From IMG/VR virus record IMGVR_UViG_2744054978_000004: a stretch of 8,593 nt of DNA, one strand, 5' to 3'. A model generated the notes under the pieces. That model saw only the letters and a program-made list of their open reading frames with translations, had not been told where the DNA came from and did no database searches. How positions within the stretch are numbered: the first letter of the stretch is position 1; each line of letters begins with the position of its first letter. Positions 4,473 to 7,871 of this stretch are shown in pieces. The position numbers and the translations under genes are program-made. Source of the DNA: a virus (taxonomy: Duplodnaviria; Heunggongvirae; Uroviricota; Caudoviricetes).

Positions 4473-7400
4473 ATGGGTAAAGGCAGCAGTAAGGGGCATA
4501 CCCCGCGCGAAGCGAAGGACAACCTGAAATCCACGCAGTTGCTGAGTGTGATTGATGCCATCAGTGAAGGGCCGATTGAAGGTCCGGTGGATGGATTAAA
4601 AAGCGTGCTGCTGAACAGTACGCCGGTGCTGGACAGTGAGGGGAATACCAACATCGCCGGTGTCACGGTGGTGTTCCGGGCTGGTGAGCAGGAGCAGACT
4701 CCGCCGGAGGGATTTGAATCCTCCGGCTCCGAGACGGTGCTGGGTACGGAAGTGAAATACGACACGCCGATCACCCGCGCCATCACGTCGGCAAACATCG
4801 ACCGACTGCGCTTTACCTTCGGTGTACAGGCACTGGTGGAAACCACCTCAAAGGGAGACAGGAATCCGTCGGAAGTCCGCCTGCTGGTTCAGATACAGCG
4901 TAACGGTGGCTGGGTGACGGAAAAAGACATCACCATTAAGGGCAAAACCACCTCGCAGTATCTGGCCTCGGTGGTGGTGGATAACCTGCCTCCGCGCCCG
5001 TTTAATATCCGGATGCGCAGGATGACACCGGACAGTACTACAGACCAGCTGCAGAACAAAACGCTCTGGTCGTCATACACCGAAATCATCGATGTGAAAC
5101 AGTGCTACCCGAACACTGCACTGGTCGGCGTACAGGTGGACTCGGAGCAGTTCGGCAGCCAGCAGGTGAGTCGTAATTATCATCTTCGCGGGCGTATTCT
5201 GCAGGTGCCGTCGAACTATAACCCGCAGACGCGGCAATACAGCGGTATCTGGGACGGAACGTTTAAACCGGCATACAGCAACAACCCGGCCTGGTGTCTG
5301 TGGGATATGCTGACCCATCCGCGCTACGGCATGGGAAAACGTCTTGGTGCGGCGGATGTGGATAAATGGGCGCTGTATGTCATCGGCCAGTACTGCGACC
5401 AGTCGGTGCCGGACGGCTTTGGCGGCACGGAGCCGCGCATCACCTGTAATGCGTACCTGACCACACAGCGCAAGGCGTGGGATGTGCTCAGTGATTTCTG
5501 CTCGGCGATGCGCTGTATGCCGGTATGGAACGGGCAGACGCTGACGTTCGTGCAGGACCGGCCGTCGGATAAGGTGTGGACCTATAACCGCAGTAATGTG
5601 GTGATGCCGGATGATGGCGCGCCGTTCCGCTACAGCTTCAGCGCCCTCAAGGACCGCCATAATGCCGTTGAGGTGAACTGGATTGACCCGGATAACGGCT
5701 GGGAGACGGCGACAGAGCTTGTGGAGGACACGCAGGCCATTCTCCGTTACGGTCGTAACGTCACGAAGATGGATGCCTTTGGCTGTACCAGCCGGGGGCA
5801 GGCACACCGCGCCGGGCTGTGGCTGATTAAAACGGAGCTGCTGGAGACGCAGACCGTGGATTTCAGCGTGGGTGCCGAAGGGCTTCGCCATGTGCCGGGT
5901 GATGTTATTGAAATCTGCGATGATGACTATGCGGGGATCAGCATCGGCGGGCGCGTGCTGGCGGTGAACAGCCAGACCCGGACGCTGACGCTCGACCGTG
6001 AAATCACGCTGCCATCCTCCGGTACCACGCTGATAAGCCTGGATGACGGAAGTGGCAATCCGGTCAGCGTGGAGGTCCAGTCCGTCACCGACGGCGTGAA
6101 GGTAAAAGTGAGCCGTGTTCCTGACGGCGTTGCCGGATACAGCGTATGGGGGCTGAAGTTGCCGACGTTGCGCCAGCGCCTGTTCCGCTGCGTGAGTATC
6201 CGTGAGAACGACGACGGCACGTATGCCATCACCGCCGTGCAGCATGTACCCGAAAAAGAAGCCATCGTGGATAACGGGGCGCACTTTGACGGCGACCTGA
6301 GCGGCACGGTGAATGGCGTCACGCCGCCCGCGGTGCAGCACCTGACTGCCGAAGTCACCGCAGACAGCGGGGAATATCAGGTGCTGGCGCGCTGGGACAC
6401 GCCGAAGGTGGTGAAGGGCGTGAGTTTCATGCTTCGCCTGACCGTGGCAGCGGATGACGGCAGTGAGCGGTTGGTCAGCACAGCCCGGACGGCGGAAACC
6501 ACATACCGCTTCACACAACTGGCGCTGGGGAACTACAGGCTGACAGTCCGGGCAGTAAATGCGTGGGGGCAGCAGGGCGATCCGGCATCGGTATCGTTCC
6601 GGATTGCCGCACCGGCAGCGCCGTCGCAGATTGAGCTGACACCGGGGTATTTTCAGATAACCGCCACGCCGCATCTTGCAGTTTATGATCCGACGGTACA
6701 GTTTGAGTTCTGGTTCTCGGAAAAGCGGATTGCGGATATCAGGCAGGTTGAAACCAGCGCGCGCTATCTTGGCACGGGGATGTACTGGATAGCCGCCAGT
6801 ATCAATATCAAACCGGGCCATGATTATTACTTTTATATCCGCAGTGTGAACACCGTTGGCAAATCGGCATTCGTGGAGGCTGTCGGTCAGGCGAGCGATG
6901 ATGCGGAAGGTTACCTGGATTTTTTCAAAGGCCAGATAACCGAATCCCATCTTGGTAAAGAGCTGCTGGAAAAAGTCGAGCTGACGGAGGATAACGCCAG
7001 CAAACTGGAGGAGTTTTCGAAAGAGTGGCAGGACGCTAACGATAAGTGGAATGCCATGTGGGGCGTCAAAATTGAGCAGACCAAAGACGGCAAACATTAT
7101 GTCGCGGGTATTGGCCTCAGCATGGAGGACACGGAAGAAGGCAAGCTGAGCCAGTTTCTGGTTGCCGCCAATCGTATCGCGTTTATTGACCCGGCAAACG
7201 GGAATGAAACGCCGATGTTTGTGGCGCAGGGCAACCAGATATTCATGAACGACGTGTTCCTGAAGCGCCTGACGGCCCCCACCATTACCAGCGGTGGAAA
7301 TCCACCGGCATTTTCCCTGACACCGGACGGAAAGCTGACTGCTAAAAATGCGGATATCAGTGGCAGTGTGAATGCGAACTCCGGGACGCTCAACAACGTC

Positions 7401-7871
7401 ACGATTAATGAGAACTGTCAGATTAAGGGGAAACTGTCAGCCAATCAGATTGAAGGCGATATTGTCAAAACGGTCAGCAAGTCTTTCCCCCGCACGAACA
7501 GTTATGCCAGTGGCACCATCACGGTAAGAATCAGTGATGATCAGAAATTTGACCGGCAGGTCATGATACCGCCAGTGTTATTCCGCGGTGGTAAGCATGA
7601 GAATTTCAACAGTAATAACCAACAGTCATACTGGTATTCAACCTGCCGGTTAAGAGTGACCCGCAATGGTCAGGAGATTTTTAATCAGTCCACGACGGAT
7701 GCTCAGGGCGTATTTTCCTCAGTTATAGATATGCCTGTCGGACAGGGGACGCTGACACTGACATTCACCGTATCTTCATCAGGAGCGAATAACTGGACAC
7801 CAACAACCAGTATCAGCGATCTGCTGGTTGTGGTGATGAAAAAATCCACAGCAGGTATCAGTATCAGCTGA
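4473..7871 (+). CDS. J: Tail tip host specificity protein J (central tail fibre), 1132 aa
   Basis: GGAG at 4461-4464, 8 nt before ATG 4473. Exactly the 1132-aa length of lambda gpJ, with a near-lambda N-terminus ([54 protein letters not shown]...). Two tandem FN3-like domains at about nt 6324-6885. The C-terminal ~140 aa appears divergent. Stop TGA at 7869-7871. Confidence 0.95.

Follow-up and report, generated by a model that had tools for sequence, protein, structure and literature searches.

An exchanged A8/phi330-type receptor-binding domain on the lambda-type J protein of an Escherichia coli prophage

We analyzed gene J in an 8,593-nucleotide (nt) stretch of prophage DNA (virus record IMGVR_UViG_2744054978_000004), the whole of which is called the window here. 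The J protein was found to consist of a lambda-type body joined to an A8/phi330-class receptor-binding domain (RBD), and the block that carries this domain is a bounded exchange cassette. The near-identity of the RBD to those of A8 and phi330 makes OmpC very probably the receptor of this prophage's J.

A bounded exchange cassette in J

J occupies nt 4473 to 7871 on the plus strand (stop codon, nt 7869 to 7871) and encodes 1,132 amino acids, the same number as lambda J (NC_001416), which served as the reference. With phmmer, it scored 2310 bits against the lambda J chains of PDB entry 8iyk and related entries. Its Pfam domains were all above their cut-offs and stood in the order of lambda gpJ, which from N to C terminus is PF24801 (FNIII-A_GpJ), PF13550 (Phage-tail_3), PF24421 (Ig_J), PF24489 (Ig_J_second), PF09327 (Phage_Tail_Tip), and PF12421 (Ig_GpJ_C). 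This domain order identifies the protein as a lambda gpJ-type tip attachment protein, or central tail fiber. When it was aligned with lambda J, 943 of the first 973 residues (96.9%) were identical, and identity dropped to 44% over residues 974 to 1132; the mismatches numbered 30 of 973 versus 89 of 159 (Fisher exact p = 2.2e-61). A sequence-only reading of the window had described a C terminus of about 150 residues, at nt 7400 to 7871, that diverged from lambda J while the rest was lambda-like. The alignment bore this out, since the C-terminal part was not at the same identity level as the remainder; the coordinates were right to about 10 to 20 nt, and the length needed correction to 159 residues. 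The divergent run opens at N974 (Ser in lambda; codon, nt 7392 to 7394), and this first substitution, S974N, is the exact site at which the peptide quoted in that reading began. The identical total length that it reported was also confirmed, as the net result of indels of -4, +5, and -1 residues in the loops of the RBD.

The same step was found in the DNA. Identity to lambda was 91 to 100% in each 90-nt bin up to nt 7352, 79% in the bin from nt 7353 to 7442, and 43 to 56% in the bins from nt 7443 to the end of J, and blastn detected no DNA similarity to the lambda RBD after nt 7429. Similarity to lambda stayed low beyond the J stop codon as well, over most of lom (to about nt 8400). The crossover was mapped at informative sites, for which lambda and the Stx1a phage Stx1_131719 stood in as parents. 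Up to nt 7379, the window matched lambda at all but one of these sites, and from nt 7393 on it matched Stx1_131719 at all of them. The crossover therefore lies in the 13-nt interval from nt 7380 to 7392 on the plus strand, which corresponds to codons 970 to 974 within NSGTL/N; the start near nt 7400, where a breakpoint scan had been proposed, was accurate. To the left of this interval lies the lambda-type backbone (residues 1 to 969; nt 4473 to 7379, plus strand), with the hub domains, the FNIII domains, the alpha-helical shaft, and the central straight fiber. The left junction falls inside a 23-residue patch that was conserved in all RBD classes among 30 homologues. The right junction was placed at about nt 7808 against phage WGPS2 and at about nt 7904 against phage 434, the points at which the sites informative between each of these phages and Stx1_131719 end. 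Both positions fall within or just after a conserved C-terminal tail of 20 amino acids (residues 1113 to 1132; nt 7809 to 7868, plus strand), which was delimited from alignments and informative sites and forms, for the A8, phage 21, 1717, and WGPS2 classes, the homology patch on the right side of the cassette.

RBD similarity was uncoupled from similarity in both flanks, because the identity patterns of four phages differed by segment when their DNA was compared with the window in 90-nt bins. For Stx1_131719, identity was mostly 52 to 92% in the J backbone, 94 to 100% in the RBD (from nt 7353), and 94 to 100% in lom. For 434, it was 88 to 100% in the backbone, 37 to 68% over nt 7443 to 7892 (the RBD), and 96 to 99% in lom, and for 1717 and WGPS2 it was 47 to 73% in the RBD and 96 to 100% in lom. 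The guanine-plus-cytosine (GC) content stepped from 57.9% in the body of J to 46.5% in the block from nt 7392 to 7871, and that of third codon positions (GC3) stepped from 70.5% to 54%. Taken together, the mosaic map, the informative-site switches, and the GC step demonstrate that the RBD block is a recombinationally exchanged specificity cassette, bounded on both sides, on a lambda-type J. The proposal of a swapped specificity module in the sequence-only reading was thereby upheld, by the sharp 13-nt breakpoint, the presence of the same RBD DNA on a distant backbone, and a lom gene shared with phages that carry other RBDs. In separate comparisons, the 3'-terminal 480 nt of the phage 21 and 434 J genes were likewise low in GC (46.5 to 47.7%), and the lambda RBD had 54%.

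An alternative origin for the divergent block, in which point substitutions, accelerated by diversifying selection, changed the J C terminus in place and no module was exchanged, was considered and rejected. RBDs are known targets of diversifying selection, and the fold and several motifs have been retained here, but divergence of this kind does not explain the mosaic map, the junctions, or the GC step. The onset is abrupt, within 13 nt; DNA identity falls to about 50%, with indels; the base composition shifts; and the same RBD DNA, at 94 to 100% identity, sits on a backbone that is only 52 to 92% identical. We consider divergence in place next to impossible. As for how the exchange came about, an A8/phi330-class RBD was very probably placed on a lambda-type J by homologous recombination that used the conserved left patch and a right patch made up of the C-terminal tail plus the J-lom spacer.

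Exchange in J may extend beyond this cassette. Over J residues 701 to 973 (nt 6573 to 7391), phage 21, 1717, and WGPS2 were 57 to 69% identical to the window and 25 to 28 residues longer, and lambda, 434, and 2H10 were 95 to 96% identical to it. This suggests that the region, which comprises FNIII-2, the helical shaft, and the fiber, is a second exchangeable segment upstream of the RBD.

Domain identity and closest relatives

The tail-tip fiber family PF09327 matched residues 845 to 972, and PF12421, the C-terminal receptor binding domain of tip attachment protein J, matched residues 1008 to 1132 with 121.5 bits against a cut-off of 26.2. Between the two matches lies the first part of the exchanged block, which is the distal fiber and a linker (residues 974 to 1007; nt 7392 to 7493, plus strand). 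It is followed by the immunoglobulin (Ig)-like RBD of the A8/phi330 type (residues 1008 to 1132; nt 7494 to 7868, plus strand), the most likely ligand of which is OmpC. An AlphaFold2 model of residues 960 to 1132 was all-beta, with a predicted local distance difference test (pLDDT) value of 85.6, and its best structural matches were PDB entries 9wca (template modeling [TM] score, 0.80), 9wcb (0.77), 8xck (0.77), and 8xcj (0.73). Its profile score exceeds the gathering score, and its modeled fold is the same Ig-like beta sandwich as in the lambda RBD. The divergent block is thus an Ig-like RBD with a short linker, another allele of the lambda RBD and not a new fold. This agrees with the earlier statement that no new system is present, as the block is a PF12421 homologue of the lambda RBD with the same fold and family. 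By sequence, it does not belong to the lambda-type LamB-binding RBDs, given the 44% identity and the indels in three loops.

Four variable, indel-bearing loops were apparent in the model, at residues 1003 to 1013, 1046 to 1050, 1075 to 1078, and 1104 to 1111, and these are the putative counterparts of loops L1 to L4; all are encoded on the plus strand. The first (putative L1; 11 amino acids; nt 7479 to 7511) was delimited from the secondary structure of the model and an indel relative to lambda. Residues N1009 and S1010 are the only differences from phi330 in this loop, and T1008 and N1009 differ from phage 21. The second (putative L2; FNSNN; nt 7608 to 7622) lies near a 5-residue insertion relative to lambda and is identical in phage 21. 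Phage 21 differences cluster at residues 1071 to 1079, around the third loop (putative L3; STTD; nt 7695 to 7706). The fourth (putative L4; SGANNWTP; nt 7782 to 7805) is a loop or short helix in the model and has an indel and low identity relative to lambda. The conserved loops are DDQxFDRQ, NG, and DMPAGxG. Strand alternation in the model, together with the variability or conservation of each loop, suggests an orientation of the variable loops toward the receptor and of the conserved loops toward the fiber. The motif GDIVK (residues 995 to 999) lies at the fiber-RBD junction; I997 and V998 in this motif correspond to I1025 and V1026 of phage 21, and D996 of lambda lies in the same motif.

A tblastn search with residues 974 to 1132 against 50,697 phage records separated several RBD classes. 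The A8 type, which uses OmpC, was found in 44 records with at least 97.5% identity to the window, including 2H10, Turner, SPF_0923, PhiR29_2, CP-1639, and many Stx1a and Stx2a phages. The remaining classes were the phage 21 type (81% identity to the window RBD; LamB natively), the 1717 type (78%), the WGPS2 type (about 61%), the 434 type (46%; OmpC), Fels-1 (45%), and the lambda type (43%; LamB). The RBD does not belong to the phage 21 type, from which it is separated by 30 substitutions, some of them in putative L1, L3, and L4. Since the 81% identical phage 21 uses LamB and the 46% identical 434 uses OmpC, receptor calls must rest on near-identity and not on class resemblance.

Near-identity was found to two proteins. 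Residues 974 to 1132 were identical to those of A8 gpJ at 158 of 159 positions, and residues 960 to 1132 were identical to the PDB chain "A8 gpJ 713" (9wca/9wcb) at 172 of 173, which places the RBD in the A8/phi330 type. The sole difference is V1089 (codon GTC, nt 7737 to 7739, plus strand), which is also the sole RBD difference from 2H10 and Stx1_131719; the residue is Ala in all three. The titles of PDB entries 9wca and 9wcb are "Closed state of A8 gpJ 713 central tail fiber" and [quoted passage not shown] respectively; a search with OmpC found three OmpC chains in 9wcb. Brodel et al. (Nature 2024) fused natural gpJ C-terminal portions to lambda gpJ and screened them for the use of other receptors (PMC11338833). 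Of lamB/ompC double-deletion cells with ompC on a plasmid, about 95% received DNA from A8 particles and about 2% from wild-type lambda particles (PMC11338833). Efficient delivery was obtained for 21 of 23 OmpC variants by chimera A8, chimera 1A2, or both, with the split between the chimeras not stated (PMC11338833). The sequences or source phage of A8 and 1A2 were not found in the supplements of that paper.

Both A8 and the window J thus combine a lambda-type body with this RBD, which is the same in the two except for V1089. The A8 fusion point can be placed only within residues 865 to 973, where lambda, A8, and the window are identical, and every difference between the window and A8 over residues 713 to 973 is also a difference from lambda. 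The two proteins are distinguished by 30 substitutions in the lambda-like body plus V1089A, and by the fact that one is a natural prophage gene and the other was engineered. In effect, the window J is the natural counterpart of the engineered A8 chimera.

The second near-identical protein is that of the Stx2a siphophage phi330 (vB_EcoS_phi330, PV189401; genus Pankowvirus), whose RBD was identical to that of the window at 156 of 159 residues (differences N1009S, S1010T, and V1089A) and whose lom is of the same type. This phage lysed 53 of 54 Keio outer-membrane-protein mutants and not the ompC mutant, and infection was restored by Plac-ompC (PMC12502783). OmpC was assigned as the most likely receptor of the window J because of its near-identity to both A8, with its OmpC complex and delivery data, and the ompC-dependent phi330. 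Of the two possibilities raised in the sequence-only reading, a receptor other than LamB was therefore favored, very probably OmpC, and the use of a different LamB contact surface appeared unlikely. In the phi330 record, the J region is given as two open reading frames (ORFs), 1565 to 1915 and 1852 to 4980, and not as one gene of about 1,160 codons, which points to a frameshift or to a sequencing or annotation problem in the record.

More distant relatives shared one part of J with the window and differed in another. The J protein of phage 21 (OL657228) represents the nearest distinct RBD class. Its N-terminal 700 residues were 97.7% identical to those of the window, residues 701 to 973 were only 69% identical, and the protein is 28 residues longer. 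In this phage LamB is the native receptor, and a single change at the fiber-RBD junction, I1025T, gains the use of OmpC (PMC11336670); the equivalent position in the window is I997, in the unchanged GDIVK. The J protein of 434 (OL657227) has a lambda-type backbone (98% identity over residues 1 to 700 and 95% over residues 701 to 973) and a lom that is 97% identical; its RBD, at only 46%, is an independent class that also uses OmpC. Replacement of lambda J by the 434 tail-fiber gene redirected binding to OmpC. Lambda J itself (PDB entries 8iyk, 8xck, and 8xcj) has the same length, domain order, and RBD fold as the window J (TM score, 0.73 to 0.77), and its receptor is LamB.

The probable receptor and the V1089 allele

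In lambda, the four distal loops of the trimeric RBD, L1 to L4, are inserted into LamB, and the bases of the RBDs spread (PMC11101478). New hydrogen bonds then form at the base of the beta-prism fiber, the fiber twists, the helical shaft flips, and the hub opens (PMC11101478). The closed and open A8 structures, without and with OmpC, parallel the lambda pair, and the natural reading by analogy is that the J protein of the window presumably uses the same trigger. With their variable distal loops, the three RBDs at the tail tip would insert into the OmpC trimer on its extracellular face, and not into LamB; this binding would spread the RBD bases apart, and the movement would pass up the beta-prism fiber and the alpha-helical shaft and open the hub for DNA ejection. 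We infer both which loops contact OmpC and that the V1089 allele on this backbone behaves like A8 and phi330.

Several points weigh against the assignment of OmpC. This allele and this prophage are known here from their sequence, and the use of OmpC is deduced from near-identity. The evidence taken from 9wca and 9wcb consists of entry titles and chain names, and a literature search found no paper describing these entries. At position 1089, in a highly conserved loop, this allele has Val in place of the Ala of A8, 2H10, phi330, Stx1_131719, and almost all of the homologues sampled. Receptor choice is labile in this RBD lineage, as phage 21, with 81% RBD identity, uses LamB and gains OmpC through I1025T. 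The ompC dependence of phi330 could in principle come from its side tail fibers instead of J.

Two other receptor assignments were weighed against OmpC. The RBD could still use LamB through a different contact surface, as its phage 21 relative does with a native LamB receptor (PMC11336670), an 81% identical RBD, and an identical putative L2 loop and C-terminal tail. However, the window matches A8 at 158 of 159 residues and differs from phage 21 at 30 of 159, including putative L1, L3, and L4; A8 particles deliver DNA into a lamB/ompC double-deletion strain with plasmid-borne ompC; and A8 was solved bound to OmpC, so the continued use of LamB is very improbable. The other possibility is that V1089 or the non-lambda residues of the backbone broadened or shifted the range, to OmpC plus OmpF or LamB or to a subset of OmpC variants. 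Single substitutions near the fiber-RBD junction are known to change receptor range (I1025T in phage 21 and D996E in lambda), V1089 lies in the nearly invariant DMPAGxG loop, and the tested chimeras A8 and 1A2 differ in the OmpC variants that they use. Such a shift is nonetheless very unlikely, as the replacement of Ala by Val is conservative, the window retains the ancestral form of the GDIVK junction motif, and the exact J protein is present on at least 24 contigs of E. coli, in keeping with an ordinary functional allele.

These comparisons leave OmpC as the preferred receptor and V1089 as the only residue of novelty, one that we rated unlikely to matter. The DMPAGxG loop that contains it is probably at the fiber-proximal face of the RBD. 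A change there could affect how the trimer packs or how opening is triggered and, through this, the breadth of receptors (for example, OmpF or LamB in addition to OmpC) or the OmpC variants that can be used, and it would then resemble phage 21 I1025T or lambda D996E; we hold an effect of this kind to be highly unlikely.

Flanking genes, prevalence, and implications

The genes around J were placed from the ORF list and Pfam matches. [quoted passage not shown] Amino acid identity to lambda was 28% for H, 55% for M, 93.5% for L, 97.5% for K, and 81% for I. The C-terminal part of H and M together span nt 94 to 2411, with a further mosaic junction at about nt 1944 to 2700, and the tape-measure protein has 1,021 amino acids in matching E. 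coli contigs versus 853 in lambda. Within the approximately 95% identical K-I-J stretch, gene I contains a divergent patch at about nt 3900 to 4200 with 66 to 72% DNA identity to lambda. Antisense to J, a 674-amino-acid ORF on the minus strand (nt 5073 to 7097) most likely arises as a side effect of the high GC3 in J.

The lom gene (nt 7938 to 8537, plus strand; PF06316, 398.7 bits) encodes an Ail/Lom outer-membrane protein of 199 amino acids and lies outside the RBD cassette. Its product was 97% identical to Lom of 434 and 97.5% identical to that of the Stx phage 1717, compared to 47.5% for lambda Lom. The allelic history of lom is therefore separate from that of the RBD, since Lom matches 434 and 1717 and not lambda, and its DNA was 96 to 100% identical to that of 434, 1717, and WGPS2 and 94 to 100% identical to that of Stx1_131719. 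Similarity to lambda in lom returned only in the last approximately 100 nt (84 to 92% from nt 8433). A consensus scan located a terminator-like GC hairpin with a T run behind it in the J-lom spacer (nt 7889 to 7908, plus strand), directly after J, and another directly after lom (nt 8564 to 8585); five terminator-like sites were present in nt 7300 to 8593 versus 1.2 expected from shuffles.

In E. coli assemblies at NCBI, the window had prophage counterparts with 99.7 to 99.9% identity. On four contigs with an identical J (L008 to L011), different side-tail-fiber genes follow, encoding 1,008 or 1,200 amino acids. The prophage end adjoins different host genes, on the smpB side in L008 and on the ydfZ/mannitol-dehydrogenase side in L009 and L010, and L008 carries a UvrD-like helicase gene and an AbiTii gene after the tail genes. 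The prevalence of the RBD was determined among 2,465 matching records from 5,426 complete E. coli genomes. Its core (nt 7430 to 7832) was present with at least 99% DNA identity in 1,122 of these records and with 95 to 99% identity in 362, so that about 1,480 of the 2,465 carried it at 95% identity or above. In E. coli prophages, few RBDs are more common than this one.

That host-range modules are exchanged in J has long been established, and this module has already been engineered, tested, and solved, so the biology described here is already known. Engineered delivery vectors already make use of this RBD. For annotation, the central tail fiber is to be labeled an OmpC-type J of the A8/phi330 class and not a LamB-type "lambda J." The OmpC label changes the predicted host range, superinfection, and routes of resistance, the last of which would be loss or variation of ompC and not down-regulation of mal/lamB. 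More generally, only the last approximately 160 residues of a lambdoid J protein are informative for receptor calls, the remaining 86% being uninformative, and even an RBD with 81% identity can use another porin.

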